In this document: piece by piece, positions 2,427 through 59,485 of the stretch
How the letters are laid out: the number at the start of each line of letters is the position of its first letter
Numbering within the stretch: position 1 is the stretch's first letter
IMG/VR virus record: IMGVR_UViG_3300037420_001819
Span: 1-63,338 of that record
Length of the DNA stretch: 63,338 nucleotides
Source of the DNA: a virus
Lineage: Duplodnaviria; Caudoviricetes
Strand: one strand, 5' to 3'
Notes under the pieces: model-generated
Databases searched by the model: none
What the model saw: only the letters and a program-made list of their open reading frames with translations
Told to the model about the DNA's origin: nothing
Program-made: the position numbers and the translations under genes

Positions 2427-3118
2427 CCGCCGCCCGCAAGATCACCCCCCGCGGCCAGGGCCGCACCCTGCGCGCCCGCGCCGACGCCGTCGCCGAGGCG
2501 TGCTCCGGCTCCTGGGGCGGCACGGCCGAGGCCGTGGACAAGCTGATCCACGAGTCGATGCACGTCTACGGCTGGCGCCCGGCGCGCGCCGCCCTGCTCT
2601 ACGCGCTGGCCGATCTGGCGCGCCCGGTCGACTACGGCGAGGAGGAGCCGATGTGGATGTCGGGCCCCGAGTTCGCCCGCTGGCGCGCCGAGATCAAGCT
2701 GGTCGCCAAGGCCCGCAAGCAGGCGATGAAGGCGCAGGACTTTCTCGGCGTGTCGGACTTCCAGGTCCGCCAGATGGAGAAGACCGGCGCGCCGAAGTGG
2801 ATCGCGCTGGCCTGCGCCCACGCCCTGTTCGGCCACGACCTGCCGGTTCCGGCCGACGACGTCGACGCCTTCCGCGAATGGTACGACGCCCGCTTCCGGG
2901 CGGTCGACCGCGTCGCCGCCTGGCTCGGCGTCGGCCACAAGTGGCTGAGCTGCCGGATGAGCGGGTTCGAGATGGTCGGCGGCCAGCGCGCCGAGCGCAG
3001 CCCGAGCGCCGGGCTGATCCGCGCCTGCGACTGGCTGTGGCGCATGGGGCCGTACTGTCCCTACGGCCCGCTGCCGCCGGTCGAGCTGTGGCCCGGGCAG
3101 GGGGAGTTGCCGCGGTGA
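2423..3118 (+). CDS. putative HTH DNA-binding protein (two HTH-like segments); carries DYGEEEP
   Basis: ATG 2423 overlaps the previous stop; AQDFLGVSDFQVRQME...PKWIALAC and VAAWLGVGHKWL...PSAGLIRAC resemble XRE-type HTH repeats. Confidence 0.6.
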   Translation: MTAARKITPRGQGRTLRARADAVAEACSGSWGGTAEAVDKLIHESMHVYGWRPARAALLYALADLARPVDYGEEEPMWMSGPEFARWRAEIKLVAKARKQAMKAQDFLGVSDFQVRQMEKTGAPKWIALACAHALFGHDLPVPADDVDAFREWYDARFRAVDRVAAWLGVGHKWLSCRMSGFEMVGGQRAERSPSAGLIRACDWLWRMGPYCPYGPLPPVELWPGQGELPR

Positions 3119-6463: not shown

Positions 6464-6633
6464 CAGTCGACCACAAGGCCTTCGGCGGCGTCGTCGGGCA
6501 TGGTTTCCGGCTCGCCGACCCAGACCGCGTCGCCGTCGCACTCCGGGCAGGTCGGCGCCCCGCCGCCGCGTTCGATCGCGTGGAAATCCTCGCCGCATGG
6601 CGCGCAGCGCGCCGGTCCGATCAGAGCCGTCAT
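6463..6633 (-). CDS. small zinc-ribbon protein (not in the ORF track)
   Basis: Hand translation MTALIGPARCAPCGEDFHAIERGGGAPTCPECDGDAVW...GLVVD*, 56 aa, CxxC...CxxC; ATG overlaps the upstream stop. Confidence 0.65.
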   Translation of the reverse strand: MTALIGPARCAPCGEDFHAIERGGGAPTCPECDGDAVWVGEPETMPDDAAEGLVVD

Positions 6634-7328
6634 TCCCCGTAGTCCTTTCCTTCCTCGTCCCGTCCGGCGTGCTCGCGCAGCCTGGCGGCCATCATCTGCG
6701 GCGTCACACCGAACGCCGGGCGGTGCGCCTCCGGCACCTTCCGCCGCGCCATCAGCTCGGGCAATTCCTTCATGCCCCTGGCGATCATGGCGCGCTCCGC
6801 CTCGGTCACCACCGGCTTCGACGCCGCCTGCGCCTGCAGCGCCCGCTTGATCCGGTACTCGGCCATCCGGAGCTTCACGGCGTAGGGCTCGGCCAGTTCG
6901 TTGATCTCGCCCGGCGACGGAAAGTACGACCCCTTGGCGGTGCGCAGGAACTCGTCGACGCCGTCCTTCAGCGCCGCGGCGGGCAAGGCGTCCAGCTTCT
7001 CCAGGAACAGCTGCATGAAGTTGCGTTGCAGCGCCGCCGCCTCGGGACCGGTGCCGAAGTCGGGCAGCTTGCGCAGCAGCATCAGCGGCTGGACCGCGGC
7101 GTAGGCCTCCTCCCGGGTCGCGGGCCGGATCATCGCCTGCAACTGCGGCAGCAACCGGGCGGCGTCCTGACGCAGCGCCGGGGTCGAGGCGATGCGGTTC
7201 ACGATCGCGTCGCGCTGCTCAGCCGTAGTCGTCGCCTTCGTCGCCAGAGCCCACAAAGGCCCGGTGGAAACTGCCGATGTCGTCGGCGCGAGAGCGCGCC
7301 CCCCTTCCAAAGCTAGTTCCTGCGCCAT
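6630..7328 (-). CDS. putative replication accessory protein (helicase loader/inhibitor position); ends in DYGE
   Basis: Strong ACAGGAGG RBS; lies directly after the initiator; LDALPAAALKDGVDEFLR...YFPSPGEI pattern seen in phage loader-like proteins. Confidence 0.55.
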   Translation of the reverse strand: MAQELALEGGRALAPTTSAVSTGPLWALATKATTTAEQRDAIVNRIASTPALRQDAARLLPQLQAMIRPATREEAYAAVQPLMLLRKLPDFGTGPEAAALQRNFMQLFLEKLDALPAAALKDGVDEFLRTAKGSYFPSPGEINELAEPYAVKLRMAEYRIKRALQAQAASKPVVTEAERAMIARGMKELPELMARRKVPEAHRPAFGVTPQMMAARLREHAGRDEEGKDYGE

Positions 7329-8304
7329 TTCCGCCTCCTGTGCTGGCGTAACGCCCTTCGATCAATCTCTGAAAACTCGACGACTGCAACAGAAAATCGA
7401 GGTGCATCTTGAAGGGGCCGTCGCGGCCGGGCCGCCGTCCCATCAGAAAATCACTCTCGGTCACCTGCTTCAGCGCCTGCATCCATCCGACCAGGCCCTT
7501 GGAGCTACGCAGCCGGGCCCTCAGTTTCTTGCGGCGGTCGTCGGTCAGTTTCTCGGCGACCGACCAGCCATGCTCGCGGGCCGCCTCGTTGTAGAGGTCG
7601 AACGCCTGCCGCACCTCGTCGATCCGGGCCGGAACGAGCGCCAGGTCCGCGGCGTGCCGCGCGCCGACGGTCACCACCCCCACCATCTCGGGCTCCTCGC
7701 CGTAGTCGGGGCCTTCGGGAACCGGAGCAGCGTCCGGCGCGTTCCCGACCTGAACATGGGGCGGCGAAGCCGACGAGTCCGCGTCAGCGGACTTATGATC
7801 TTCTGTTGTGTCTTGTCCTGTTATGTCTTGTGTGGCGATTTCCCCGGGGGACACGACCCCCGTTCCCCGGGGATCGTCGCCGTCTTCCCCAGGGGAGCCG
7901 CGCTTGCGGCGCTTCTTTTCCCGCTCCCGGCGGCGCCGGTCCTGCAGGGTCGACCACGTCTCGACGGCGATCTCGGCCAGCGTCGGGTGATACCAGCGGC
8001 CGTCGGCGCACAGCACCCACGGCCCCATCACCTCGGCCTTCACGGCCAGCCAGCCGGACAGGTCTCGCCGGCCGAACCCGGCCGCCACTGACAGGGCGAT
8101 GTCGTCGTCCGGCAGCGAGGCCGCCGGGACCTGCTCGTAGGCCTCGCACCACAGCTCGACGCTGATGGCCTTGGCCTGGTCGGACGCCTTCAGCCACCAG
8201 GACGACCGGCGCAGGCGCTTGTGGTGCAGCGGGAACCACGCCATCGACCGCAGATCGCAGTCTTCCGGCGTCATCGGGGCGGGTAGGGCGAGCGCTGTGT
8301 TCAT
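7219..8304 (-). CDS. phage replication initiator, DUF1376/YdaU-like
   Basis: N-term LPAPMTPEDCDLRSMAWFPLH...LWCEAYEQVPAASLPDDD...DGRWYHP (DUF1376-like); C-term FLMG...LDFLLQSSSFQRLIEGRY typical of phage replication proteins. Confidence 0.75.
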   Translation of the reverse strand: MNTALALPAPMTPEDCDLRSMAWFPLHHKRLRRSSWWLKASDQAKAISVELWCEAYEQVPAASLPDDDIALSVAAGFGRRDLSGWLAVKAEVMGPWVLCADGRWYHPTLAEIAVETWSTLQDRRRREREKKRRKRGSPGEDGDDPRGTGVVSPGEIATQDITGQDTTEDHKSADADSSASPPHVQVGNAPDAAPVPEGPDYGEEPEMVGVVTVGARHAADLALVPARIDEVRQAFDLYNEAAREHGWSVAEKLTDDRRKKLRARLRSSKGLVGWMQALKQVTESDFLMGRRPGRDGPFKMHLDFLLQSSSFQRLIEGRYASTGGGNGAGTSFGRGARSRADDIGSFHRAFVGSGDEGDDYG

Positions 8305-8514: not shown

Positions 8515-9711
8515 CTACATCTTGAGCACCTCCATGGCGTCGACCAGGGCGATCCTCTCGCCGATGAGTTCCATCGCGTTGACCGCCATCGAGTTGCCCA
8601 GCGCCTTGTAGCGCGGGCCGTCCACGTCCTTCACGCGCCAGCGGCCGGAGCCCTTGGTCTGGCGCACCTCGAGCCCGAGCTCCATGCACGACTCCGGCGT
8701 CTCGTCCGTGTCCATGGGCCGCCACGCCTTCCACGGGATCTTGGTCCAGTTGTCGGGGAAACCCTGCAGCCGCTCGCACTCCAGCGGGGTCAGCCGGCGC
8801 ACCGCCCAGTCGGTGGCCACCATCGGCGCCGACCCGGAGGCCCGGTCGCAGTTGGTGCCGATGGCGCCAGACACGTCCGGCCCGAGGTCGATGTTCGAGC
8901 CTCGGGTCTGGAAAGCGATGTAGTCGCGGCTGGAGCCGCCGGAGGCCGCGCGCAGCGCGCCGACCGTGTCGCCGCGGCCGTGCACCTCGGGGACTGCCCC
9001 GGCGTCGTCGCGGCCGCGCAGGGCGAAGGCGACCGGGATCAGATGTCCGGCCTGGGCCTGGTTGTCGTCCGCGCCGCACGTTCCAACGCCGTTTGCAGTA
9101 AGGGCGGCAACTGCCGACCCCGGCCGGCGGCGCGGCGGAGGATTCCCAGACAGGCTTTCGCGGTCAAAAAGTACCGCAGCGGCACGGCGCCAATCGCCTC
9201 CAGAATGTCCGACAACGAAGACACGACGGCGTCGCTGTGGGACAGCCCGTCCGAAGCGGCATGTTCTGACGTACTGAGCGTCCAGAGTTCGGTAGGCGAA
9301 CCCATACCCGAGTTCGACCAGGCCCCCGAGGATGGCTCCAAAGTCCCGTCCGCCGTTCGACGACAGGACGCCGGGGACGTTCTCCCATACCAGCCAGTCG
9401 GGGCGCAGGCGTTGAGCCAGCCGAAGATACTCGAGCGCCAGGTTGCCGCGGTCGTCGTCCAGCCCGCCGCGGAGCCCGGCGACGCTGAAGGACTGGCAGG
9501 GGGTGCCTCCGACAAGGAGTCGAATAGGCCCATACTCGCCTGCGCGGATCGTCGTGAAGTCGCCATGAAGCGGAACCCCCGGGTGTCGGTGTTGAAGGAC
9601 CGCCCGCGGGAACGCGTCGATCTCGGAATAGAAGGCCGGCTGGAAGCCGTGCGGGGCCCACGCCACCGTCGCGGCCTCGATGCCGCTGCAGACGCTGCCG
9701 AAACTGATCAC
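8515..9711 (-). CDS. DNA (cytosine-5)-methyltransferase
   Basis: GTG start with GGGGGAGG RBS; motifs I SVCSGIEA, IV GGTPCQSFS, VI WENV, VIII QRRRRVF, IX RRLTPLECERLQGFPD, X YKALGNSM. Confidence 0.93.
   Translation of the reverse strand: MISFGSVCSGIEAATVAWAPHGFQPAFYSEIDAFPRAVLQHRHPGVPLHGDFTTIRAGEYGPIRLLVGGTPCQSFSVAGLRGGLDDDRGNLALEYLRLAQRLRPDWLVWENVPGVLSSNGGRDFGAILGGLVELGYGFAYRTLDAQYVRTCRFGRAVPQRRRRVFVVGHSGGDWRRAAAVLFDRESLSGNPPPRRRPGSAVAALTANGVGTCGADDNQAQAGHLIPVAFALRGRDDAGAVPEVHGRGDTVGALRAASGGSSRDYIAFQTRGSNIDLGPDVSGAIGTNCDRASGSAPMVATDWAVRRLTPLECERLQGFPDNWTKIPWKAWRPMDTDETPESCMELGLEVRQTKGSGRWRVKDVDGPRYKALGNSMAVNAMELIGERIALVDAMEVLKM
9039..9566 (-). CDS. nested alternative-frame ORF resembling the M.EcoHK31I beta polypeptide (start uncertain)
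   Basis: SSLSDILE...PLRYFLTAKACLGILRRAAGRGRQLPPLLQTAL in a different frame inside the MTase gene. Confidence 0.6.
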   Translation of the reverse strand: MATSRRSAQASMGLFDSLSEAPPASPSASPGSAAGWTTTAATWRSSIFGWLNACAPTGWYGRTSPASCRRTADGTLEPSSGAWSNSGMGSPTELWTLSTSEHAASDGLSHSDAVVSSLSDILEAIGAVPLRYFLTAKACLGILRRAAGRGRQLPPLLQTALERAARTTTRPRPDI

Positions 9712-9875
9712 GCCTCCCCCTTCAGGACGGCCAGGTCCTGGTGTTCTGAGCAGTAGGTGTCCGTGCCGCACAGCTCGACGACCCGGTCCGGCTCGACCGC
9801 GGCGGACTCGAAGCGGCTGAGCCCGCTGACGCGGGTCGCGCGGACGCCGCTCCTGAATTTCGGCTTGTCGTTCAT
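9708..9875 (-). CDS. hypothetical protein
   Basis: MNDKPKFRSG... 55 aa, coupled to both neighbours by 4-nt overlaps, GGGGGAG RBS. Confidence 0.55.
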   Translation of the reverse strand: MNDKPKFRSGVRATRVSGLSRFESAAVEPDRVVELCGTDTYCSEHQDLAVLKGEA

Positions 9876-10555
9876 TCTCCCCCCCGGGATTGGAACATGC
9901 AGGGTTGCACCGGCGCGATCAGCGGCTCCGCCTTCGGTGGCTCCGGCGGCCGGACGAATTTCTCGACCTCGTTGCCCCATTGGTCCCAGCCCGGGACCGC
10001 CGTGCGGGCGTTCATCTCGAGGTAGGGCCCGGCGGCGTAGCGCTCGATCTCGGCGTGGAGGTCGGGCTTGCGGCTGTGCTCGCGCACCGGCGCCACGATC
10101 AGCTCGGGGATGTCGCGGGCCAGCCGCCTCGGCGAGCCGCGCCGGCCGAGCAGGCAGAATTCAGAATTTTTGCGGGTCGTGTAGCCGGTGCCGATCGGGA
10201 AATCGTCCGGGTTGGTGATGAACGCCCGGGTCGGGCTGAACCCCTCGCGCAGCTTGGCCCAGACCTTGAAGCTGCTGGAGTAGGTGAAGCCCCACGCCTT
10301 CAGGGTGGCCAAGCCGTGCTCGAGGAACGGCCAGGTGCACCACAGGATCAGGTAGCAGTCCTTCGCCGCAACCCGGCGCACCGGCAGCGCCTTGATCTCC
10401 TCCAGCGTCATGGTCGGGTAGTGGCGCTCCACGTCGCGCCGGCCCTTCGCGCCTTCCTTCGGCGGCGCGTAGGTTTTGAACTTCCACGCGGGGTCGGCGT
10501 AGATCACCCCGTAGTGCTTGCGCGGAACGTCGTCGAAATTGCTGTAGGCGGTCAT
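9872..10555 (-). CDS. MT-A70 family adenine methyltransferase
   Basis: YGVIYADPAW, HYPTMTLEEIKALPV, AWGFTY, HSRKP, YLEMNAR, GWDQWGNE. Confidence 0.9.
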   Translation of the reverse strand: MTAYSNFDDVPRKHYGVIYADPAWKFKTYAPPKEGAKGRRDVERHYPTMTLEEIKALPVRRVAAKDCYLILWCTWPFLEHGLATLKAWGFTYSSSFKVWAKLREGFSPTRAFITNPDDFPIGTGYTTRKNSEFCLLGRRGSPRRLARDIPELIVAPVREHSRKPDLHAEIERYAAGPYLEMNARTAVPGWDQWGNEVEKFVRPPEPPKAEPLIAPVQPCMFQSRGGE

Positions 10556-10788
10556 CGCCGGCGTCCCTTCCATTCGGCCGCGTGCGCCGGGCACAGGTCT
10601 TTGCCGGGCGCGGGCCTGTGGGTGCAGACGACGCAGATCGGCGCGTCGCAGGTCGGCTTCTTGCCCTGCGGCGTCTTCCAGTCGCACAGCAGGGTCGCCG
10701 GCCGGCCGGAGCCGCACCGGCAGCGCTTCGGACGCCCGGTGCAGACGATGCCGGTCACGCCGTTCGCCCTGAAGGGGACGCAGGGCAT
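10552..10788 (-). CDS. Cys-rich zinc-binding protein
   Basis: MPCVPF...CRC...LLCDW...TCDAPICVVC...DLCPAH. Confidence 0.7.
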   Translation of the reverse strand: MPCVPFRANGVTGIVCTGRPKRCRCGSGRPATLLCDWKTPQGKKPTCDAPICVVCTHRPAPGKDLCPAHAAEWKGRRR

Positions 10789-11051
10789 CAGGCGGCCCGC
10801 CTCTGCTGCTCGCGCAGGGCCAGGGCGATGCGGCGCACCAGTTCGGCGTCGCCGCCGCCCTTCGTGGCCTTCAACGGCGGCTCGTCCGGCCGTTCCTGAC
10901 GGAACCGGCGCATGTTGTTCACCGCGTTTCGGGTGCGCGGCCAGCCCGCCTCGGTCAGGGCGGCGGCCGCCTTCGCCGCGGACAGGTGGTCGAGGCGATC
11001 GAGCGCCGCCAGTTCGTCGTCGTCCCACGGACGGTCGGTCGCCCCGCTCAC
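10788..11051 (-). CDS. GcrA-like/Myb-type HTH protein
   Basis: WDDDELAALDRL...SAAKAAAAL...TRNAV resembles the GcrA N-terminal DNA-binding HTH; the GcrA sigma-binding C-terminal part is not apparent. Confidence 0.5.
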   Translation of the reverse strand: MSGATDRPWDDDELAALDRLDHLSAAKAAAALTEAGWPRTRNAVNNMRRFRQERPDEPPLKATKGGGDAELVRRIALALREQQRRAA

Positions 11052-11575
11052 AGCAGCGCCCCCTTCGACTTGGCTTCCCGGCGCGCGGCGGCGGCCTGTT
11101 TGGCCAGTTGCGTCTTCGACGGCGGCGCGCCGAAGCTGAACACGAACCAAACGCCAGCGGCGTCGGCCATGTGCTCGTCGAGGAGGTGTGCCGGGATACG
11201 GAACTTCTCGGCCGCCCCGGCGATCATGTCCGGCTTCTGCGCGTTGCCGCGGCCGGTCAGGGCCAGCTTGGCCTCGTGCACCGGAACCTCGCGGAACGGC
11301 ACGCCGCGCTGGGCGCACAGCCAGGCGATGTGCCCGACCAGCGCGAAGTTCTTGCGGATGCCGGTGTGGTTCTGGCCGGCGGTGTTGGGGATCTCTGCGG
11401 CGCAGGCGGTGGCGCCGTCGATCTCCCGCAGGATGAAGTCCGTCGCCGATGAAAGGTAGGGCCCGAGCGCGGTCACGTCGCGCAGCTTGTGGGTCCTGAG
11501 CACGACCCGGTCGATCACGCCGACCGGCCCCCGGGCGACGCCGAGATGGCGGCCGGGATCGAAGCACACCAACAT
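11048..11575 (-). CDS. ruvC: RuvC-like Holliday junction resolvase
   Basis: FDPG...G, AAE, AKLALTGRGNAQKPDM, DEHMADA acidic catalytic pattern. Confidence 0.85.
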   Translation of the reverse strand: MLVCFDPGRHLGVARGPVGVIDRVVLRTHKLRDVTALGPYLSSATDFILREIDGATACAAEIPNTAGQNHTGIRKNFALVGHIAWLCAQRGVPFREVPVHEAKLALTGRGNAQKPDMIAGAAEKFRIPAHLLDEHMADAAGVWFVFSFGAPPSKTQLAKQAAAARREAKSKGALL

Positions 11576-11639: not shown

Positions 11640-12350
11640 TCAGTTGACGGCCGCGCCCTTGCGGGCCCGGGGCTTCTTCGCCCCCAGCGCCGCCGCCGCC
11701 CTGTCGATCTCGGCCTGCTCCTTGGCGCGTTCCTCGGCCAGGCTTGGAGTCAGCGGCACGACGTTGGACGGCTCCTCGCCGTAGTCGCCGCCCTCGGCGT
11801 CGCCCAGCTGGTGCGGCGAGGCGCCCGGCGGGGTGCCCGGCTGCAGCCGGTCGGCCTCGCTCTGGACGGTGTCGGCCTTCAGCGCCTCGGCGGCGGCCTC
11901 GGCCAGCGCCTCGGCGCGGGCCTTGTCGCCCTCGCCCCAGCCCTCCATCCACAGCTGGACCTGCGCCGGGCTCAGCGACGGCGGCGGCGACGCCTTCAGC
12001 CCCTTCAGGCCGGCGAAGTTGCCCGCCCAGCGCACGTCCTCGGTGGCGCCGGTCGGCTGCGCCTCGCTGAACAGGTCGAACTGGGTGCCGACCTTGATGT
12101 TCACAAAGCCGAGGTACTTCAGCTTGCGGGTGAAGTAGGTGCGGATCTCGCCGATGGTCCAGCCCAGCATCTTGCGGACCTGGTCGAGGTCGCCGAGCTC
12201 GATGTTCTGCGCCTTGAACTTCTTGCGGTTGCGGCTGCGCCGGGCCTTGATCGCGTCCAGGTCGGCGTCGTCCTGCTCGGCGATCGCCACCGCCTTGAGG
12301 AAGTCTTCTCGGGTCGGGCCGTTGTGGCCGTCGCCTGCGGGATCGCTCAT
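11640..12350 (-). CDS. GapR/DUF2312-like DNA-binding protein with C-terminal extension
   Basis: GHNG start, coiled helix, then RKKFKAQNIELGDLDQVRKM like GapR homologs; contains QFDLF and DYGEEP. Confidence 0.55.
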   Translation of the reverse strand: MSDPAGDGHNGPTREDFLKAVAIAEQDDADLDAIKARRSRNRKKFKAQNIELGDLDQVRKMLGWTIGEIRTYFTRKLKYLGFVNIKVGTQFDLFSEAQPTGATEDVRWAGNFAGLKGLKASPPPSLSPAQVQLWMEGWGEGDKARAEALAEAAAEALKADTVQSEADRLQPGTPPGASPHQLGDAEGGDYGEEPSNVVPLTPSLAEERAKEQAEIDRAAAALGAKKPRARKGAAVN

Positions 12351-12460: not shown

Positions 12461-12664
12461 TCAGGCGGCCGTGGCGGCCTTCTCGTCGGCGTGCCTCTGG
12501 GCCACCGATTCGAGCTTCTTCAGGTTGCCCACCGCGGCGGGCGGGGCTTTCAGCAGCTTGCGCACGGTGTTCTCGTTCAGCCCGGCACGCTTGGCCAATT
12601 CAGGCACGCCGAGCTCGAACGCGGCGACCTTGATCTGCTGCTCGGCTTCTTCGATGCGGGTCAT
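12461..12664 (-). CDS. Cro-like HTH regulator
   Basis: 67 aa, GVPELAKRAGLNENTVRKLL; first gene of the leftward operon at a divergent promoter. Confidence 0.7.
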   Translation of the reverse strand: MTRIEEAEQQIKVAAFELGVPELAKRAGLNENTVRKLLKAPPAAVGNLKKLESVAQRHADEKAATAA

Positions 12665-12739
12665 GTAGGCCCCTTGTGGTCGCGATCAGATGGCGGGACC
12701 GTACAGCGCAGAAATTTGCGCCGCAACTCAATTTCGTGT

Positions 12740-12768
12740 TTGACGCCCCAAGAAACCGCCCATATGGT
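12740..12768 (+). promoter_or_regulatory. sigma70-type promoter for the recombination operon
   Basis: TTGACG (12740-45), 17-nt spacer, TATGGT (12763-68); flanked by imperfect inverted repeats GCGCAGAAATTTGCGC (12706-21) and CTTGC-N11-GCAAG (12773-93). Confidence 0.7.
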
Positions 12769-12813
12769 CCGGCTTGCAAATCACGTTCGCAAGCGCCGCA
12801 CAGGAGGCCGCCC

Positions 12814-13338
12814 ATGAACCACACCGCGCCCGAAACGGGCGTCTTCGTCGCGCTGCTCGCCGACGAGAATCTGCAGGTCGCGGTCGATCCGGACGGCGTC
12901 CTGGTGATCTATCCCCGCGGCGACGAGGCGGTGGCGCTGCAGATCCCCGCCGACCTGATCCGCCAGACGCTCGAGAAGCTGATCGCGGTGGTCGAGCCGC
13001 GCGCCTCGCGGCCGCCGCTGAGCGTCGGCGAGGCCAAGGCCATAGACCGGGTCGTGCCGATCCGCCCGACATCCGATCGCCGCCACGTCAGCCGCGAATT
13101 GATGCAGCGCCTGCAGATGCTCGGCGACGTGCTGACCCCGGAATCGCCGAACGGCGGCTTCGACGCCTTCATCGCCGGCGTCAGGATCGACGGCCGGGAC
13201 GCGGTCGGCACGGGCCCGTCCGCAGTCGACGCGATCGCCGATCTGTGGATCCGGCTCAGTGCCGCCGACTGGATCAACGTCAACGGCGCGCCGCCTGTCC
13301 GCTGGTCGCCGTACCGGCGCGCGTGGATCGACGCCTGA
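12814..13338 (+). CDS. hypothetical protein
   Basis: ATG 12814 with CAGGAGG RBS downstream of the promoter. Confidence 0.7.
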   Translation: MNHTAPETGVFVALLADENLQVAVDPDGVLVIYPRGDEAVALQIPADLIRQTLEKLIAVVEPRASRPPLSVGEAKAIDRVVPIRPTSDRRHVSRELMQRLQMLGDVLTPESPNGGFDAFIAGVRIDGRDAVGTGPSAVDAIADLWIRLSAADWINVNGAPPVRWSPYRRAWIDA

Positions 13339-13877
13339 TGGACGGCGCCCAGATCACGGCCGAGCGCTGGCTTCCCGTCGTCGGGTACGAGGGGCTGTAC
13401 GAGGTCTCCGACCTCGGGCGCGTGCGCAGCATCCACCACAAGGCCAGCGGCGTGACTCGCCCCAGAGCGCCGTGGATCTTGGCGCAGACCAGCAACGGAC
13501 GCCACGGCGGCCATGTCACGGTGGAGCTCAGGGACGAGAACAGCAAGCGCCGCAATCGTCTCGTTCATCAACTCGTCCTGAACGCCTTCATCGGCCCGCG
13601 ACCGGCTGGAACGGGCGGGGCGCACGACGACGGCGACCCGACCAACAACCGGCTCGGCAATCTGGCTTGGAAGACGCAGGCGCAGAACATGGCTGACAGG
13701 GAGCGGCACGGGCGCACCGCCAGAGGCGAGAGACACGGCAGCGCGAAGCTGACGGAAAAGACGGTCATCGAGATCAGGGCCTCGACGAAATCAACTGCCG
13801 AATTGGCCCGGTCGTACAAGGTTGGAGAAACGACCATCTCCGCAATCAAACTTCGGAGGAAGTGGAAGCATGTCTAG
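13338..13877 (+). CDS. NUMOD4-HNH homing endonuclease
   Basis: WLPVVGYEGLYEVSDLGRVRS (NUMOD4); VHQLVLNAFIG...HDDGDPTNNRLGNLAW (HNH); C-terminal HTH-like tail. Confidence 0.92.
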   Translation: MDGAQITAERWLPVVGYEGLYEVSDLGRVRSIHHKASGVTRPRAPWILAQTSNGRHGGHVTVELRDENSKRRNRLVHQLVLNAFIGPRPAGTGGAHDDGDPTNNRLGNLAWKTQAQNMADRERHGRTARGERHGSAKLTEKTVIEIRASTKSTAELARSYKVGETTISAIKLRRKWKHV

Positions 13878-15024
13878 CATCGTCGAGCACCCGGACGGGG
13901 TGCATCTCCACATGAGCGAGGACGCCTATTTCGAAGACTGGGCGCTCGGGTCTTCTTCCATAAAGATGTTGTATTCCTCACCCATCGACTGGTGGTGGAA
14001 TTCTCCGTTCAACCTGCTGCAGCCGCAGGCGCGCAAGAAGAAGAACGCCCTGGAGTTCGGCTCGGCGCTGCACGTCGCGCTGCTGGAGGGCATGCAGACG
14101 TTCCGCACGGTCTACGGCGTCGAGCCGACGAAGTACGACCACCCGAACGCGCTCGACACCATGGACGACATGAAGGCCTGGCTGAAGGATCGCGGCGAGA
14201 AGGTGTCCGGCTCCAAGGCCGATCTGATCGAGCGGGTGCTGGCCTGCGACCCGAACGCCCCGGTGCTCGAGCGCATCGTCGCGAAGTGGGCGCAGCAGGG
14301 CAAGCGGCCGATCAGCCGGACGGACTTCGGCAAGATCACGCTGATGGAGCGCCTGCTGATGGGGCCGCCGAGCCAGCCGACGCGGCTCGGCAAGGCGTTC
14401 ACCGGCGGCCTGTCGGAGGTGTCGGTGTTCTGGACCGAGGAGGTGCAGATCGGCGCCGCGGTGGTGAAGATCCGGTTCCGCGCCCGGCTCGACAAGCTGA
14501 AGCCGAACGCCAGCATCGACCTGAAGTCGTTCTCCAACTGGGAGGGGCGCGAGTTCCACAAGGCCATGCTGCGGGACGCGGCGATCCGCTGGTATCCGCT
14601 GCAGGCAGTGCACTACGAGAAGGCCCGGCAGAAGCTGCGCGAGTTCGTCGCCGCCGGGAAGATCTTCGCGCCCCCGGGCTGCGAGGCCGAGATCGAACTG
14701 CTGCAGGAGATCGCCCGAGCCGAGACGTGGCGCTGGGTGTGGGTCTTCTACAAGACCGACGGCGCGCCGCGGGCCAAGGGCATCGTCATGGAGTGGCACG
14801 GCCCCGGCGGCATGGCGACCGAGGGCCAGGGCAAGCACGGCGCGATCTACAACTATGCGCTCGGCCAGTACCAGCAGGCGATCGCCGGCTTCCACCAGTA
14901 CGCCGCCCACTACGGCCTCGGCTTCAACGACGACGGCTCCGGCAAGCCCATGTGGGTCGACCTCGAGACGCTGTGGGATCCGGCGGTCGAGGACTTCCCC
15001 TCCTACAGCCAGATTGTGGACTGA
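13870..15024 (+). CDS. recE: RecE/exonuclease VIII-like PD-(D/E)XK nuclease (DUF3799-like) with SAP-like insertion
   Basis: LGSSSIK, FGSALHVALLE, EVSVFW, RARLD, IDLKS, YPLQAVHY; upstream of recT. Confidence 0.8.
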   Translation: MSSIVEHPDGVHLHMSEDAYFEDWALGSSSIKMLYSSPIDWWWNSPFNLLQPQARKKKNALEFGSALHVALLEGMQTFRTVYGVEPTKYDHPNALDTMDDMKAWLKDRGEKVSGSKADLIERVLACDPNAPVLERIVAKWAQQGKRPISRTDFGKITLMERLLMGPPSQPTRLGKAFTGGLSEVSVFWTEEVQIGAAVVKIRFRARLDKLKPNASIDLKSFSNWEGREFHKAMLRDAAIRWYPLQAVHYEKARQKLREFVAAGKIFAPPGCEAEIELLQEIARAETWRWVWVFYKTDGAPRAKGIVMEWHGPGGMATEGQGKHGAIYNYALGQYQQAIAGFHQYAAHYGLGFNDDGSGKPMWVDLETLWDPAVEDFPSYSQIVD

Positions 15025-15209
15025 TGCGCGCGCCCGTAGGCCTTTCCGACCGCAACTGGGATCTGGTTCGCCGGCTGACGCCGAACAGCGTGGCCGTCGA
15101 ACTTTCCGCCCGGGGCCGCTCCCGCATCTACGCGGACGAACTGAACCGCCTGCTCGACGCCGCGCGCGAGGAAGGCCGCAACGAGAAGGAGGGCGCCCAT
15201 GCCCGGTGA
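15024..15209 (+). CDS. hypothetical protein
   Basis: MRAPVGLSDRNW..., ATG overlaps the previous stop. Confidence 0.5.
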   Translation: MRAPVGLSDRNWDLVRRLTPNSVAVELSARGRSRIYADELNRLLDAAREEGRNEKEGAHAR

Positions 15210-16062
15210 AGAAGCCTACGACGATCTGTGCCGCGCCGAGTCCTACGAGGACTACGACTACGGCGAGGGGCCCGACTACGGGGACCCGTTCCCCTTGGCG
15301 GCCCCCGCGGCCACGATCGGCCACAACCAGCCCCCCTCGTTCGAGGAGGAGATCCGCGCCGAGCACGCCGCGGTGTTCCGGGCGGTGGCCGACCTCGAGG
15401 CCGCCTACGACAAGCTGCCTGCGGCGGTCGGCTCGGAGGCCGATCTGGCCCTGACCTCCAAGTTCGTCGTCGATCTCGGCGCGGTCGTGAAGAAGGTCGA
15501 CAAGGCGCACAAGGACGCCAAGGCGCCGCTGAAGGAGAAGGTCGACGTGATCGACGGCCTGTTCCTGTCCAAGGGCCTGAAGGGGCGGCTGGAGGCGTGG
15601 AACGCCGCGGTCCGGCGCCGCAACGACGCCTGGCAGACCGAGCAGAACCGCCTGCGCCGCATCGCCGCCGAGGAGGAGGCCAAACGGCTGCGCGAGGCCG
15701 AGGCCGCCCGCATCGCCGAGGCAGAGGCGCTGGCGGCGCAAGGGCAGCACCGCGTCGCCGAGGTGGTCGAGGCGCAGGCCGTGCACCTGGCCGAGGCGGC
15801 GCAGGCGGTGGCCCAGACCGCCGAGGCGGCGGTGAAGGACGTGGTGCGCACCACCACCGGCGCCGGCGTCACCGTCGGCGGCCGCACGGTCTGGGAGTTC
15901 GAGATCGAGGACGCCGCCAAGATCGACCTCAACCTGCTGCGCAGCGTGATCCTCGACCACGAGCTCGAGGGCTTCGTGTCGCGCTTCGTCAACCGCGGCG
16001 GCCAGGCCCTGCCCGGCGTCCGCATCTACGAGACGGTGAAGGCGACCTACGGCCGCCGGTGA
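15199..16062 (+). CDS. coiled-coil recombination-region protein; N-terminus carries DYGE and DYGD
   Basis: IGHNQPP, long coiled coil, RTVWEFEIED...LPGVRIYE C-terminus typical of phage proteins next to recT; GGAGG RBS. Confidence 0.75.
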   Translation: MPGEEAYDDLCRAESYEDYDYGEGPDYGDPFPLAAPAATIGHNQPPSFEEEIRAEHAAVFRAVADLEAAYDKLPAAVGSEADLALTSKFVVDLGAVVKKVDKAHKDAKAPLKEKVDVIDGLFLSKGLKGRLEAWNAAVRRRNDAWQTEQNRLRRIAAEEEAKRLREAEAARIAEAEALAAQGQHRVAEVVEAQAVHLAEAAQAVAQTAEAAVKDVVRTTTGAGVTVGGRTVWEFEIEDAAKIDLNLLRSVILDHELEGFVSRFVNRGGQALPGVRIYETVKATYGRR

Positions 16063-16471: not shown

Positions 16472-18625
16472 ATGGACGGTAACGCCGCCGCCACCACCCG
16501 CACCGCCGCTCCGGCCATGGAGCTCGCCGAGGACCGCGTCGACGGCCAGGACGTCGTCGTCTACGAGGGCGGCGGCCAGACCGTCGCCCAGCAGCGCAAG
16601 GCCCGCACCGGCGCCCTGATCGCCGCCTTCGACAAGCGCCGGGCCGATTACGAGACCTTCCTGAACGCCTACGGCATCAGTTTCGAGGTGTTCACCGCCG
16701 TCATCAAGCAGGCGCTGGTGAAGCAGCCGGACCTGCTCGACTGTTCGGCCGGGTCGGTCCTGCAGGCGGCGCTGATGTGCGCCAAGGACGGGCTGGTCCC
16801 CGACGGCAAACGGGCGGCGATCACCAAGTTCGGCAACGTCGCCACCTACCAGCCCATGTACGAGGGCATGCTGGAGATCGCCTACGACGTCCGGGACGCT
16901 GCGGGCAACATGGTCTACCGGGACGTCGAGGTCGACGTCGTCTACAAGGGCGAGGAGGAGCTGTTCGAGTACCGGCGCGGCGACGACGGCTACATCCGCT
17001 TCAGCCCGCCGCTCGACCGCGACATCACCGCCGAGATCGCCGGGGCCTACTGCATCATCCGCACCACCAACGGCGGCGTGTTCCGCGAGGTGATCGGCGG
17101 CAAGGAACTGAAGAAGATCCGCGCCGTCTCCAAGGCCAAGAAAGGCCCGAACGTCGACTGGCCGGCCCAGATGGCCAAGAAGGCGCCGCTGCGCCGCCTG
17201 CTGAAGATCACCCCGAAGAACGCCCGCCTGCAGCAGGCGATGACCCACGACGAGAACTCGTACCTCACCGAGGTTCCCGGGCCGGAGTCCGCGGCGCCGC
17301 AGATCGGCCACGACCAGCTGTTCGACGACAAGGCCGTGCACGTCGCCGCCGGGGGCGAGACCGTGGTCGAGGCGGAGGTCGAGCCGGTCGACGCCCTGAG
17401 CCACGCCCGCGCGCTGCTGATGGAGTGCGAGAGCGCCGAGCAGCTGGAGTCGACCATCGGCTACATCAACGCGGCGCCGGAGTTCGCCGGGCTGAGCGCC
17501 GAGGATCGCGAGAGCCTGGCCAAGAACGCGCAGGTCATGGCCCAGCGCTTCGGCGCGGCCGATATTACGGCGCCGACCGACCACGAAATCGCCGCCCCCG
17601 AGAAGCCGAGGAAGCCGCGCAAGTCGAGGGCCGAAAAGATCGCCCACCCGGACACCGAGTCCGGCGGGACCGGCGTGGCGGCCGACGCCGTGCACGAACC
17701 CGAGGCGGCGGTCGACCCGGTGACCGGCGAAGTCGTCGACGACCCTGCCGCACTCGGCGGCTCCGGCGGCTCGTATGTGCGGGCGGTCGCTCCGGTGATC
17801 GAAACCGTGGCCGACGACTTCATGGCCGGGCCGGACACGCCGCCGGTGATCACCGACGCCTCGTTCGAGGAGATCGACGAGACTCCGGCGAGGGTCGGCG
17901 GGCCGAAGGTCGAGGCCAAGGCCGAGCCCAAGGTGACCCCGGCCGAGGCCGCGGCGACGGGCGACTTCTACATGCTGTCCACCGACACGCCGAACGCCAG
18001 CAAGCAACGCCCCTACTACGACGAGAAGGGACAGATCCGCGGCTACGCGCTCGACAGCCAGGGCATCCGGGTGCTGGACGCCCACCCGAACCAGCCGCAG
18101 GCCGCGCCCGCGGCGTCGGACCGGCCCTACACCCTGTCGGGCGACCCCTGGGAGAACGGGATCAAGCCCGCCTACATCGCCGGCGTCGCTCGGGCCAAGG
18201 CCGGCAAGAACAACGCCCTGCCGGAGTTCGACAGCCACGAGGCGGCCGCCTCCCACTTCGCCCAGCCCGAGATCCGGCGGAACCCGGAGGACCGGGTCGA
18301 CCCGGCGCAGGCCGCGCCGCCGGAACAGTCGAAGGCCGAGGCGGCGGACGAGTACGGCGCCGGAGAGACCGCCGTGCTGCGCGGCAAGTTCCGGCCGAGC
18401 GACCCGGCGAAGGAGTACACCGACCCGGCGCTGTGGATGGCCGACATGCTGAACAAGCTGCAGACCGTCTCCGAGCAGGGGCGGCCCATGTGGTTCGCCG
18501 ACAACCTCCAGTTCATCCGCGAGGCCCACGCGGTCGCGCCGGAGAAGGCCATGCGCATCCTCGCCGTCGCCGCCGCCCACAAGCTGCCCGGCGCCGCCGA
18601 GGCCGTCCAGGATCTCGGCCGGTGA
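16472..18625 (+). CDS. recT: RecT-family ssDNA annealing protein with very long C-terminal extension
   Basis: LLDCSAGSVLQAALMCAKDGLVPDG, YQPMYEGM, GAYC, WPAQMAKKAPLRRLLKITP in the first ~270 aa; 717 aa total. Confidence 0.85.
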   Translation: MDGNAAATTRTAAPAMELAEDRVDGQDVVVYEGGGQTVAQQRKARTGALIAAFDKRRADYETFLNAYGISFEVFTAVIKQALVKQPDLLDCSAGSVLQAALMCAKDGLVPDGKRAAITKFGNVATYQPMYEGMLEIAYDVRDAAGNMVYRDVEVDVVYKGEEELFEYRRGDDGYIRFSPPLDRDITAEIAGAYCIIRTTNGGVFREVIGGKELKKIRAVSKAKKGPNVDWPAQMAKKAPLRRLLKITPKNARLQQAMTHDENSYLTEVPGPESAAPQIGHDQLFDDKAVHVAAGGETVVEAEVEPVDALSHARALLMECESAEQLESTIGYINAAPEFAGLSAEDRESLAKNAQVMAQRFGAADITAPTDHEIAAPEKPRKPRKSRAEKIAHPDTESGGTGVAADAVHEPEAAVDPVTGEVVDDPAALGGSGGSYVRAVAPVIETVADDFMAGPDTPPVITDASFEEIDETPARVGGPKVEAKAEPKVTPAEAAATGDFYMLSTDTPNASKQRPYYDEKGQIRGYALDSQGIRVLDAHPNQPQAAPAASDRPYTLSGDPWENGIKPAYIAGVARAKAGKNNALPEFDSHEAAASHFAQPEIRRNPEDRVDPAQAAPPEQSKAEAADEYGAGETAVLRGKFRPSDPAKEYTDPALWMADMLNKLQTVSEQGRPMWFADNLQFIREAHAVAPEKAMRILAVAAAHKLPGAAEAVQDLGR

Positions 18626-18909
18626 TCGTCCACACCTACCTGAGCGCCGACGCCCCGGCGCCGTACCGGGCGGTGGCGCTGATCACCACGCCGACCGGCA
18701 AGAGCGGCGCCGAACTGCACCCGGTCATCTTCCGGGCGCCGGACGAGGCCACGGCCCGCGCCAACGCCGAGGCGTGGTGGGCCGCCGAGCTCGACCGGCT
18801 CGGGGCGAAAAAGGCTCCCAAGGGGCGGCGTCCGGCCGCCCCGAAGGAGGCCGGCGGCGACTACGGCGAGGCCGCCGACTACGGCGAAGGCCCGGACTAC
18901 GGGGAGTGA
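18622..18909 (+). CDS. small protein ending in three tandem DYGE motifs
   Basis: GTGA overlap; ...GGDYGEAADYGEGPDYGE*. Confidence 0.7.
   Translation: MIVHTYLSADAPAPYRAVALITTPTGKSGAELHPVIFRAPDEATARANAEAWWAAELDRLGAKKAPKGRRPAAPKEAGGDYGEAADYGEGPDYGE
18859..18906 (+). repeat. 3 copies of GACTACGG(C/G)GA(G/A) at an 18-bp period
   Basis: GACTACGGCGAG 18859, GACTACGGCGAA 18877, GACTACGGGGAG 18895. Confidence 0.9.
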
Positions 18910-20479: not shown

Positions 20480-21233
20480 CATCCTGTTCCGCGTCGTCGA
20501 CCTCGAGACGGTCGGCGTCGACCCCACCCCCGAGCCCTGCGACGGCATCGTCGAACTCGGCTGGACCGACGTGTGGTTCGACAGCGACACGCGCACCGCC
20601 TCGGTGGGCGAGTCCTACGACTACATCCTGTTCAACCCGCCGGGCGGCATCCCGCCGGAGGCCAGCGCGGTTCACCACGTCACCGGCCGCATGGTCAACG
20701 GTCTGGCCCCGTGCACGGCGGAGGTGGTGCGCCTGCTGACCGCCGACATGCCCTACCAGCGCACGCCGTTCGCGCTGGTGGCGCACAACGCCAAGTTCGA
20801 GCGCAGCTGGCTGGACGCCGCGCTGGGCGAGACGCGCTGGCTGTGCACCTACAAGGTGGCCAAGCGGGTGTGGCCGGAGTGGCCGGCGCACAACAACCAC
20901 GCCTGCCGCTATTTGCTGGGCCTCGACCTCGACCCACGGAAGGCCGAGCCGCCGCACCGGGCCGGGCCGGACGCCTACGTCACCGCCCATGTGCTGGCCG
21001 CCATGCTCAGGTTCGGCGTCGCCTCGGTGAACGACATGCTCGTCTGGACCCGCGAGCCGGTGTTCATGCCGGTCTGCCCGATCGGCGAGGACTGGCGCGG
21101 CAAGCCGTGGAGCGAGGTCGACCACGGCTTCCTGTCGTGGGTGCTGCGCAAGGACGGCATGGACGCCGACGTTCAACACTGGGCCCGCGTCGAACTCGAC
21201 CGGCGCCGTCAACTCGCAACGCAGGGGGCGTAA
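20472..21233 (+). CDS. exoX: DEDDh 3'-5' exonuclease, exodeoxyribonuclease X-like
   Basis: VDLET, ASAVHHVT, VAHNAKFE, HRAGPDAYVT; C-terminal RGKPWSEVDHGFLSW; TTG start. Confidence 0.85.
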   Translation: MPDILFRVVDLETVGVDPTPEPCDGIVELGWTDVWFDSDTRTASVGESYDYILFNPPGGIPPEASAVHHVTGRMVNGLAPCTAEVVRLLTADMPYQRTPFALVAHNAKFERSWLDAALGETRWLCTYKVAKRVWPEWPAHNNHACRYLLGLDLDPRKAEPPHRAGPDAYVTAHVLAAMLRFGVASVNDMLVWTREPVFMPVCPIGEDWRGKPWSEVDHGFLSWVLRKDGMDADVQHWARVELDRRRQLATQGA

Positions 21234-21236
21234 ACC

Positions 21237-21542
21237 GTGAACCCGTGGACCATAATCGGCTGGACGCTGATCGCGCTGGCGGCCCTGTTCCTCCTCTACC
21301 GGCTCGGGCGCGGCGCGCTTCTGCTGCTGGGCATGTACCTGATGCGCCGGCGGGCGTTGCAGACCCCGCCGCGCGCGGGCCAGACCTGGATCCAGAACGG
21401 CACGCTGCTGACCATCGAACAGGCCGACGCCGCCATCGTGCGGGTCGCGCTTCCCAACGGCGGCTGGACCGAGTCCCGTTCGTCCTGGGACCAGCGCGTC
21501 GTCGCCCGCGGCCTGATGTTGCTGGAGGACGCCGATGGCTGA
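21237..21542 (+). CDS. membrane-anchored hypothetical protein
   Basis: N-terminal TM helix, 101 aa. Confidence 0.65.
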   Translation: MNPWTIIGWTLIALAALFLLYRLGRGALLLLGMYLMRRRALQTPPRAGQTWIQNGTLLTIEQADAAIVRVALPNGGWTESRSSWDQRVVARGLMLLEDADG

Positions 21543-21951
21543 AACGAAGGAATTTCCCACCGCGGACGTGCTGTCGGTGATCACCGGCGTGCTGGTGTCC
21601 GAGCGCGGGGCGGACGTGTTCTACGAGGTGTCCAGCTGGATGGCCGACGGCCCGGTCTGGACGCACCAACTGCCGCGCGTAGGCCGCGAGGCGCGGGCGG
21701 CGGTCCTGAAGCTTCGCCCGGACCTGGCGGACGCCGTCGCCGAGGCGGACGCCCTCACCGAGGTGGAAACCGCCACCCCGGACGACTGGCGAGCCTATGC
21801 GGCCCGCTGGATCGAGCGGTGCGGCCCGACCATCGCCGTGCCGCGCATGACCGACGGCGAGCACGAGCGCATCGACCCGCTGTCAGAACTGGCCGAGAAG
21901 GTCCACCCGGACCGCATCGTCGTCGCGAAGGCGGAGGGCGACCATGGCTGA
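21535..21951 (+). CDS. hypothetical protein
   Basis: FPTADVLSVITGVLV...VWTHQLPR; GGAGG RBS. Confidence 0.75.
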   Translation: MAETKEFPTADVLSVITGVLVSERGADVFYEVSSWMADGPVWTHQLPRVGREARAAVLKLRPDLADAVAEADALTEVETATPDDWRAYAARWIERCGPTIAVPRMTDGEHERIDPLSELAEKVHPDRIVVAKAEGDHG

Positions 21952-35704: not shown

Positions 35705-35742
35705 GGGCGCTCAGGTCAGGAGGGCGGACGAGCCGCCGGGGG

Positions 35743-35931
35743 TCAGGCTTCCGCCGGGAAAGCGGCCTCGATCCGGGCCTGCACGTCGGCCTCGATCCGG
35801 GCGATCTCGCCGTCGATGAAGCCTTTCACGCTGTTCAGACCGGCGATGCGCACCGACGCGTCTTCGTCGACGTGCTCGGAGAAGCTCCGGATCGCCGTCT
35901 CGAGGCGGGCCTTCTTTTCGGACAGGTTCAC
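35743..35931 (-). CDS. hypothetical protein
   Basis: 62 aa, TAAGGAG RBS. Confidence 0.7.
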   Translation of the reverse strand: MNLSEKKARLETAIRSFSEHVDEDASVRIAGLNSVKGFIDGEIARIEADVQARIEAAFPAEA

Positions 35932-35942
35932 GGGCGGTCTCC

Positions 35943-49401: not shown

Positions 49402-50095
49402 CTTGCCCCTCCGGCCCTTGCTCAGCCGTAGAGGCGCCCGAATCGGCGCCCGGGGTCAATTCGTCGCCGTAATCGGCGTCCGACGAAACGTCGTCGGCCG
49501 TCTCGCCTTCCGTCCCGCCTTCGCCGGACGTCTGGCCTTCCGCTACGTCCTCGCCGGCGGTCTCCTCGACCGGGGCGGGCGGCGGCGGGACCTGCTTGGC
49601 CTGTTCCACCGCCGCGGCGGTGGCGTCGAGCCCGTCGAGGAACAGGTCGACTCGCTTCAGGCCGTTGATCTGCCCGCCCGGGTTCAGCCGGCCGCCCTGC
49701 GCGTCGTAGACGTCGTAGTGGCGGAAGTTGCCCTTGCGGGTCTCGACCAGGAAGCGGCCGCGGTGCGGCGTCGCCCCGGCCGGGAGCCCGGCGGCGGGCG
49801 AAGCCGGAGCGCCTTTCGGCAGCTCCAGCCCCATCGCCTTCAGGCCGTCGACGGTGAAGCCCCTCGGAACGCGCCCCTCGGGCAGGGCACGAAGACACGC
49901 GGCCAGGTTCTCTTGGGTGAGTTCCCCGATCATGCGCGCCTCGTACATCTGCCGCGCCCTTCGCTCCCCGAGCGCGAGCTGACGCCACGGGAAGGCGTCG
50001 CCCGGTCCGAACGAGCGGCCCGAAACCGAGGCGATCGGCTTCATGGCGATCATCTGGGCGCCGGTGTTGAAGGGGAGGAGAGCGTTCCGTTTCAT
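49370..50095 (-). CDS. hypothetical post-capsid protein with acidic tail containing DYGD
   Basis: 241 aa starting 3 nt after the capsid stop; acidic low-complexity C-terminus. Confidence 0.7.
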   Translation of the reverse strand: MKRNALLPFNTGAQMIAMKPIASVSGRSFGPGDAFPWRQLALGERRARQMYEARMIGELTQENLAACLRALPEGRVPRGFTVDGLKAMGLELPKGAPASPAAGLPAGATPHRGRFLVETRKGNFRHYDVYDAQGGRLNPGGQINGLKRVDLFLDGLDATAAAVEQAKQVPPPPAPVEETAGEDVAEGQTSGEGGTEGETADDVSSDADYGDELTPGADSGASTAEQGPEGQDGGDVQRGPE

Positions 50096-58843: not shown

Positions 58844-59461
58844 TCAGCCGAACGCCCGCTTCAGCAGGTCGTCGGCGGCCTCGCCGTAGTCGGGGCCGAG
58901 GTCCGCCTCAACGGTCGGGGCCGGTTTTCCGGGCGCGGCGGCCGCCGGGGCCGGCAGGCCCCGCTCCATCAGGCGCGCGGTCAGGTCGGCGAGGCCGGCC
59001 GTGGCTTGCGGGTTCTCAGGGCTCGGCCGGCCGGGCCGCCCCTTGGTCTCGGCGGGCGCGCCCTCGGTCGCCTGCAGACGCGACGTCTCGCGGTCGACGA
59101 TCTTCCAGCGCAGGTCGGCGGCCTTGGTCATCATGGCGGCGTCGTTGGTGCAGCGCGCCTGCCGCCACATCTGGTTGGCCATCCACTTGATCTCGCCGAA
59201 CAGCGGATCCTTCTCGAGCTCGGCCTTCTCGTCCTGCAAGTCCTTCATCCTCGCCTGGAACTCGGCGGTCCGTTCGATGCGGATCCGGTACTGGCCGGAG
59301 CCGCCGTCGTCACGGTAGCCGGCGTGCCGCCAGGCGTCGGCCCGGGTGACGCCGTCGGCCATCAGCAGGGCGAACAGCTCGATCCGGGGGTTCTGGATCG
59401 CCCCGTCGGCGAGCCGCACCACCTTGGTTTCGAACAGTTCCTTGGCCGCCTTGCCCGCCAT
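58844..59461 (-). CDS. terminase small subunit-like protein; carries LGPDYGE
   Basis: NPRIELFALLMADGVTRADAWRHAGY HTH typical of TerS; upstream of terL on the same strand; start could be 59470. Confidence 0.65.
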   Translation of the reverse strand: MAGKAAKELFETKVVRLADGAIQNPRIELFALLMADGVTRADAWRHAGYRDDGGSGQYRIRIERTAEFQARMKDLQDEKAELEKDPLFGEIKWMANQMWRQARCTNDAAMMTKAADLRWKIVDRETSRLQATEGAPAETKGRPGRPSPENPQATAGLADLTARLMERGLPAPAAAAPGKPAPTVEADLGPDYGEAADDLLKRAFG

Positions 59462-59485
59462 GAGGGCCAAGCTGCGCCGATTCGG

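Follow-up and report, generated by a model that had tools for sequence, protein, structure and literature searches.

A small protein encoded beside phage recT carries a triple DYGE tail and may be a multivalent ligand of a common docking hub

Introduction

Sliding clamps are the standard hub on which other proteins dock through one common short peptide, and phage T4 gp43, gp33 and gp55 carry C-terminal clamp-binding tails. Bacterial QL(S/D)LF and the PIP box Qxx[I/L]xxFF are peptides of this kind, both with a hydrophobic pair, and dock many DNA-metabolism proteins that are otherwise unrelated (PMC9690074). A preliminary description of the 63,338-bp IMG/VR virus record IMGVR_UViG_3300037420_001819 (Duplodnaviria; Caudoviricetes), the whole of which we call the window, singled out a 95-residue protein encoded next to recT (18622..18909, plus strand) with the C-terminus GGDYGE-AADYGE-GPDYGE. 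Here we analyse this small protein, its family and the recurrence of DYGE in other proteins of the same phage.

The locus resembles the clamp systems in that one short peptide is found on many unrelated DNA-metabolism proteins and in that the window phage likewise encodes a beta-type clamp. The L-x-x-F-F half of the PIP box also resembles tips found in the family of the small protein (hydrophobic-x-[DE]-hydrophobic-hydrophobic-COOH, for example LEDIF). However, DYGE has a single aromatic residue, no hydrophobic pair and no Gln, its binding is only putative, and other clamp-encoding alphaproteobacterial phages are without such common tails. Small proteins that block clients provide a second comparison. 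The closest precedents for a decoy or titrator, each characterised chiefly by a high-affinity copy of the hub motif, are p21, which surpasses all other PIP-box ligands in binding PCNA, and SocB, a Caulobacter toxin that binds DnaN through a clamp-binding motif (PMC9690074). Each has one optimised motif, whereas the protein studied here has three tandem copies, and neither is related to it in sequence or fold. SSB (OB domain, disordered linker and acidic tip ..DDDIPF) is similar in architecture and in gene position beside an annealing protein. In that system SSB alone carries the tip and has many readers, whilst here many proteins carry the tip; the small protein is moreover modelled as beta-beta-beta-alpha, not recognisably OB, and has another tip sequence.

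In the literature searched, neither the family nor DYGE as a phage motif is described, and the papers containing the whole word 'DYGE' are non-phage by title. A hub motif common to many clients is known; the DYGE motif, the family, the triplication and the change of code from phage to phage are new. Hub-and-motif wiring is well known for clamps and SSB, but in temperate phages it has rarely been detected from sequence. The present code can be seen without prior knowledge: a four-residue peptide is strongly over-represented in the window phage, another peptide takes its part in a second phage, and one small family tracks the local code in both.

Results and discussion

The 95-residue open reading frame (ORF; protein P0001) is a real gene. 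Its G+C content at codon positions 1, 2 and 3 is 0.74, 0.58 and 0.94, matching the other coding genes of the window, and the N-termini of homologs agree with the GTG start. The GTG (18622) overlaps the recT stop codon TGA (18623-18625) as GTGA, and an AGGA lies approximately 9 nt 5' of it. The gene and its coupling to recT, as given in the preliminary description, are borne out by the translation (VIVHTYLSADAPAPYRAVALITTPTGKSGAELHPVIFRAPDEATARANAEAWWAAELDRLGAKKAPKGRRPAAPKEAGGDYGEAADYGEGPDYGE, then stop), the coding pattern and the overlap. The following ORF begins at 18912, 2 nt past the stop.

The three DYGE copies of the tail are encoded at 18859-18870, 18877-18888 and 18895-18906 on the plus strand, the third being C-terminal. 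Tandem Repeats Finder reports a period of 18 with 2.8 copies and 84% matches. Across the copies the Gly codons are GGC, GGC and GGG and the Glu codons GAG, GAA and GAG, and the spacers are GCCGCC (AA) and GGCCCG (GP). This comparison confirmed the earlier observation that spacers and wobble positions differ whilst DYGE is kept. In P0002, a homolog of 94% identity, all three copies are kept and the spacers are unchanged. Selection on the peptide, as first suggested, is supported by this retention, by the equivalent tips in the family and by the presence of DYGE in seven other proteins of the phage. With three copies P0001 is also the protein richest in the motif, the next having two.

Across the phage proteome, DYG[DE] was found at 11 sites in 8 of the 66 called proteins (16,604 residues), four of the sites being internal and two near an N-terminus. 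When all six frames are translated, the motif (nine DYGE, two DYGD) appears only within called coding frames. By contrast, shuffling within proteins (n = 2000) gave a mean of 0.21 sites and a maximum of 3, and shuffling in 20-residue blocks (n = 2000) a mean of 0.40 and a maximum of 5. Of the 24 possible permutations of these four residues (D, Y, G, E), DYGE was counted nine times and each of the others 0-2 times.

The seven other carriers are spread over the window. A 287-residue protein (15199-16062, phrog_10477), encoded between the RecE-like exonuclease and RecT, has DYGE-GP-DYGD near its N-terminus (15256..15285, plus strand). A DUF1376/DnaD-like replication initiator (7219-8304) has GPDYGEEP in its inter-domain linker (7696..7707, minus strand) and ends in DDYG (7222-7230, minus strand), and its downstream neighbour, of 232 residues (6630-7328), ends in GKDYGE (6633..6644, minus strand). 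Three further carriers have their sites on the minus strand: a 236-residue protein (11640-12350, phrog_26995) with GGDYGEEP (11775..11786), a 208-residue protein upstream of the terminase genes (58844-59470) with GPDYGEAAD starting 15 residues before its C-terminus (58880..58891), and a 241-residue protein adjoining the major head gene (49370-50095) with DADYGDE (49463..49474). The last, an ORF at 2306-3118 with a third-position G+C content of 0.93 and an uncertain start, has VDYGEEEP (2630..2641, plus strand). Near-matches were left uncounted: the large terminase (55110-56600, minus strand) ends ..YTFDDFGAEE, and RecT has DEYGAGE inside it.

Longer strings are common to pairs of genes, with DYGEAAD, DYGEGPDYG and G[PG]DYGEEP each found in two. 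The 21-nt string coding for DYGEAAD is identical in the genes for P0001 (18859-18879) and the 208-residue protein (58891-58871), and DYGEGPDYG is common to P0001 and the 287-residue protein, at 26 of 30 nt. The identity reflects either copying of short modules from gene to gene or constraint by codon bias.

An AlphaFold2 model of P0001, built with 30 sequences, gave predicted local distance difference test scores (pLDDT) of 89-99 for residues 1-60, with strands at 2-7, 17-25 and 29-39 and a helix at 42-64. Residues 61-95 scored 51-63, the tail itself 51-57. The proposed layout of a globular part of about 60 residues, a basic linker and a tail is therefore right, as judged by this confidence profile: a beta-beta-beta-alpha domain (residues 1-64; 18622..18813, plus strand) with conserved HPV and WW, also supported by the 29 homologs described below, is followed by a Pro/Gly/Lys/Arg linker (residues 62-79, AKKAPKGRRPAAPKEAGG; 18805..18858, plus strand). 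In the model of the initiator, the linker that holds the internal site (residues 141-229) lies between two confident domains and is mostly below pLDDT 55, as is the C-terminal tail with the terminal DDYG. The motif sites of both modelled carriers are thus probably in disordered segments.

Searches of Pfam and PHROGs with P0001 gave no family match, including to SSB, OB or Gam families. The domain had a best E of 0.86 in PDB by Foldseek and of 5e-3 in BFVD, there to unnamed phage proteins, and its best ESM Atlas score, 0.77, is below the usable range. By VIA-align the 64-residue domain aligned best with small alpha-beta folds without sequence relation: MmoD (6d7k_H, Z 5.4, root-mean-square deviation 1.8, 53 residues aligned), the HicB N-terminal domain (Z 4.2-4.3) and double-stranded RNA-binding domains (Z approximately 4). 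Such Z values are in the range of common arrangements, and function is therefore not transferable from these matches. No OB protein is among the structural matches listed for the domain, an absence that does not exclude the fold.

HMMER, run against the complete set of 1.84 billion representatives (E <= 1e-3), matched 29 proteins of 69-144 residues, none fused to another domain. All family counts below refer to the 30 aligned sequences, the window protein and these 29. A19 and P34 are invariant, and V35, A49 and W52 are at least 90% conserved. In members the domain, with HPV on strand 3 and WW on the helix, is followed by a basic segment and, in most cases, by a C-terminal tip of acidic and hydrophobic residues, such as DYGEAI (P0016), DFGEAI, DIGDVL, DLGDVI, LEDIF, MEEAF or SGEVF. 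A [DE]-hydrophobic-hydrophobic ending is present in 15/30 and the five-residue tip in 8/30. One D-x-G-[DE] copy is found in 7/30, and three copies only in P0001 and P0002. On these counts the window tail has the look of a DYGEAI-type tip after triplication and loss of the two terminal hydrophobic residues. The expectation that homologs would have the tail thus held only in part, as approximately 10 of the 30 are tipless, including P0003, the nearest relative after P0002. The tail is therefore a frequent but dispensable family feature, and its triplication is private to the lineage. Modification of the Tyr as an ancestral role was rejected, since Ile, Leu, Val or Phe takes its place in homologs. 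A loose basic Pro/Gly linker pattern (PRGRP, GPRK), defined in this analysis, occurs in 12/30 members and a Pfam AT_hook match in one (E 0.0055); the window linker has KGRRP, not the AT-hook core RGRP.

The family is rare and unnamed. No members were found in IMG/VR by protein, alignment or DNA pattern, in GTDB genome contigs, or in metagenome contigs searched with P0021, and tblastn of GenBank phages with P0001, P0025 and P0006 gave none beyond chance matches at E 0.5. Searching metagenome contigs with P0013 returned L022 and L023. The latter, an ordinary-looking bacterial fragment with a weak 35-residue match, was dropped as a family context.

L022, a metagenome contig of 7.2 kb, provides the second context. 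The gene for P0013 lies 60 nt upstream of those for an ERF-family annealing protein and a YqaJ exonuclease. An annealing protein is thus found beside the family gene in both contexts, from two different families, RecT in the window and ERF in L022. In L022 (5-4142), 5 of 11 proteins end in one peptide, L/P-E-[DE]-[VI]-[IF]: a C5 methyltransferase (..TLEDVI), a DnaQ-like exonuclease (..PLEEVI), RusA (..ELEDII), a GapR-like protein (..QPEDVI) and P0013 itself (..DLEDIF). In both phages the small protein bears the tip of other DNA-handling proteins, and the peptide differs between the phages. The match between the tip of the family member and the other L022 tips therefore points to the tail as a phage-wide docking peptide that varies between phages.

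The distribution of the motif in homologs of its carriers was also checked. Among 102 homologs of the initiator, DYGE is present only in the window's own copy, and the nearest other ends ..VDLGDDSY. The DnaQ-like exonuclease of the window is 40% identical to the tipped one of L022, yet has no DYGE. On these comparisons the motif is acquired per lineage and not inherited with the gene, the pattern expected for a short docking motif that is quickly gained and lost under selection from a common reader. Many of the DUF1376-type initiator homologs (P0155-P0255) end ..RRSA, ..RKTA, ..LAA, ..MAA or ..AAA, where the window copy has DDYG.

We propose that the small protein is attached to the recombination module and acts on a common hub as a multivalent client, competitor or adaptor, a proposal that we consider evenly balanced between right and wrong. 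The protein would be made with RecT as an accessory factor of this module. Its folded domain, perhaps together with the basic linker, would position it at recombination intermediates, whilst the flexible linker would present the C-terminal docking peptide Asp-Tyr-Gly-Glu. The same peptide is found in flexible segments of replication, recombination and probably packaging proteins, so a common reader is most likely; DYGE in those segments would tether replication-initiation, recombination and probably packaging proteins to it. The three tandem copies would make the small protein the most multivalent client, with a tighter hold on the hub or faster rebinding. Three hooks six residues apart are too close for distant pockets, and faster rebinding, or engagement of an oligomeric reader, would thus be likelier. 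The outcome could be an adaptor that brings the hub to RecT-bound DNA or a competitor that occupies the hub at the expense of other clients; sequence does not discriminate between recruitment and exclusion, and either may apply. We infer that DYGE binds a partner, and likewise the identity of its reader and the direction of the effect.

The leading candidate reader is the phage's own DnaN-like beta sliding clamp, of 437 residues (635-1948, plus strand; phrog_947, E 3e-49; Pfam DNA_pol3_beta_2, E 5e-14, and DNA_pol3_beta_3, E 3.7e-09). A sliding clamp as reader, be it that of the phage or that of the host, is a tentative suggestion that we think more probably wrong than right. Prediction of a complex between clamp residues 78-437 and the small protein, run without controls, gave scores of 0.21 and 0.00 against a mark of 0.32, neither support nor counter-evidence. 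If not a clamp, the reader would be the annealing protein, the domain of the small protein itself or some other host protein. The window and L022 have in common only a DnaQ-like exonuclease (a client in L022), a weak methyltransferase match and the small protein. As the only one of these without a known enzymatic function, the small protein makes its own domain a formal candidate; L022 is only a fragment, however, and a host reader is equally possible. DYGE could also be a lineage-private address code, acquired independently by at least eight proteins and read by a phage-encoded protein other than the clamp, perhaps the domain of P0001. Head-to-tail self-linking and cross-linking of clients would then nucleate an assembly for replication, recombination and packaging on phage DNA. 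We give little credence to this more elaborate scheme.

As observations on the clamp itself, it has approximately 60-80 more N-terminal residues than the family profile and phage homologs, and it shares about 35-40% identity with alphaproteobacterial DnaN and with other phage-type clamps of 420-470 residues. The clamp gene of Caulobacter phage Sansa is also long (1386 nt).

Several results weigh against a common hub, or against the clamp as that hub. DYGE and its flanks (EP, AA, GP or the stop) are without the hydrophobic pair of clamp motifs. TDG, PR, FNxxY and MPxR[LV], which we take to be the peptide-cleft residues of clamps, are invariant or nearly so in an alignment with phage and cellular clamps, so that the pocket seems canonical, with no adaptation to a Tyr-containing acidic peptide. 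In five clamp-encoding alphaproteobacterial phages (16-3, Sansa, RHph_X2_25, AmM-1 and RR1-A) we found neither a family homolog (0/5) nor a common C-terminal peptide. L022 has no clamp, although the fragment is only 7.2 kb. The genomic contexts read for the family number two, the window and L022. In the window, DYGE is absent from both methyltransferases, from the RuvC-like protein and from the DnaQ-like exonuclease, whereas their L022 counterparts are tipped. The tipless members of the family, P0003 among them, imply that the domain works without a tip. Finally, codon bias makes GACTACGG hardly possible in any other frame; the in-frame argument is thus weak alone, and the case rests on peptide-level statistics.

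Of the rival explanations, self-regulation survives best but is in our view unlikely. Each carrier would be a DNA-binding protein whose acidic tail folds onto its own basic DNA-binding surface, like the tips of SSB or T7 gp2.5; the triple DYGE would neutralise the adjacent linker, and the sequence would have spread by copying of DNA modules, not through a common reader. The tail does lie directly after a Lys/Arg-rich linker, several carriers are in DNA-handling families and the extended identical strings in gene pairs fit module copying. Tail regulation of T7 gp2.5 is published (PMC10359462). However, a generic acidic tail needs no fixed order, yet DYGE occurs nine times against 0-2 for each of the other 23 orders, and in L022 one tip is found on unrelated folds. 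Sites at an N-terminus or in mid-linker also do not fit.

Still less probable is that the tips are degrons, tagging early proteins for a host protease or its adaptor, with the triple-tagged protein giving protection as a competitive substrate. Competitive-substrate inhibitors of host proteases are known from phages. Tips of family members and of L022 proteins are for the most part placed at the very C-terminus, and the Ala-Ala ends of many initiator homologs are presumably protease-tag-like, a ClpXP-type ending, in the place of which the window copy has DDYG. In the window, however, 4/11 sites are internal and 2/11 near an N-terminus, and no protease or adaptor gene was found beside the carriers.

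The small protein could also be an SSB-like or Gam-like third component, whose domain binds single-stranded DNA or a host nuclease and whose tail recruits or inhibits readers of the SSB tip or RecBCD/AddAB, the other DYGE sites being unrelated. The gene has a position often taken by SSB in phage recombination modules (in Erythrobacter phage R6L the order is exonuclease, ERF, small ORF, SSB), a domain followed by a disordered linker and an acidic tip mirrors SSB, and reading of the SSB C-terminal tail by annealing proteins has been reported (PMC13490951, PMC6393309). Against this stand the lack of an SSB, OB or Gam match in Pfam and PHROGs, and a beta-beta-beta-alpha model without a strong structural match. 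The window tail, ..GPDYGE, is also unlike the SSB acidic tip ..D-I/V-P-F, and the phage SSBs compared end ..DDDIPF. The proteome-wide enrichment of DYGE would be left unexplained, and we see only a slim chance for this alternative. That the tail has no function, being a slippage repeat in a disordered segment with the other DYGE sites arising merely from composition or from a motif at the DNA level (GACTACGGCGAG), is very improbable: the 18-nt tandem period and a codon bias that by itself holds GACTACGG in the D-Y-G frame fit it, but the enrichment survives shuffles preserving local composition, the copies differ synonymously, P0002 retains all three, and the family tips are equivalent as peptide, not as DNA.

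If a common reader of DYGE were found, the motif would be a tool for telling which phage proteins work together, and the triple tail a natural multivalent ligand, usable as bait or as an inhibitor of the hub. The system would also illustrate how, within a single genome, unrelated proteins repeatedly come to carry a short motif. If accessory adaptors are needed, the small protein may further bear on the poor function of RecT/ERF modules outside their native context.

Genomic surroundings

The window has approximately 70% G+C and an estimated completeness of 79%; no relatives of the phage were found in IMG/VR when searched by clamp or by RecT core. Early genes lie on the plus strand from approximately 13.8 to 26.2 kb. 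They include a RecE-like PD-(D/E)XK exonuclease with a SAP domain (13822-15024, plus strand) and recT (16472-18625, plus strand), which encodes 717 residues with the RecT core at residues 80-262 (Pfam RecT, E 2.5e-24; phrog_148, E 7e-43) and a long extension. In the full sequence the RecT core ends near residue 360; next come a long acidic, Pro-rich and probably disordered stretch and, at the C-terminus, a helical segment of about 90 residues. The genes 3' of recT are, in order, the 95-residue ORF, a 71-residue ORF, an HNH/YbcO-like nuclease, a phrog_874 protein and the DnaQ-like exonuclease. Elsewhere, two successive DNA methyltransferases of the C5-cytosine and MT-A70 types (8515-9771 and 9872-10717, both minus strand) and a RuvC-like resolvase (11048-11575) are without DYGE.

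Outside the window, the tandem pattern DYGE-xx-DYG[DE] was found in 6 IMG/VR stretches, all of unrelated GC or context and none with proteome-wide DYGE enrichment. An unrelated IMG/VR contig (L043, 11350-12294) has a DnaQ-like exonuclease and then ..EDDYGEYLDYGDDD, an isolated tandem DYG[ED]. In Erythrobacter phage vB_EliS_R6L, a relative through the DnaQ-like exonuclease, no common C-terminal peptide was found; its ERF protein (20689-21861) ends ..EDLFGGEGEG and its gp33 (12543-13166) ends ..EPDFGFEGEGDEDD, and these two ends may be a common acidic-aromatic tail. DEAD/DEAH-box helicases of Rhizobium phage 16-3 (47005-48738) and RHph_X2_25 (34405-36243) end ..ELDDEVPF and ..ELEDDVPF, respectively, which are SSB-tip-like.

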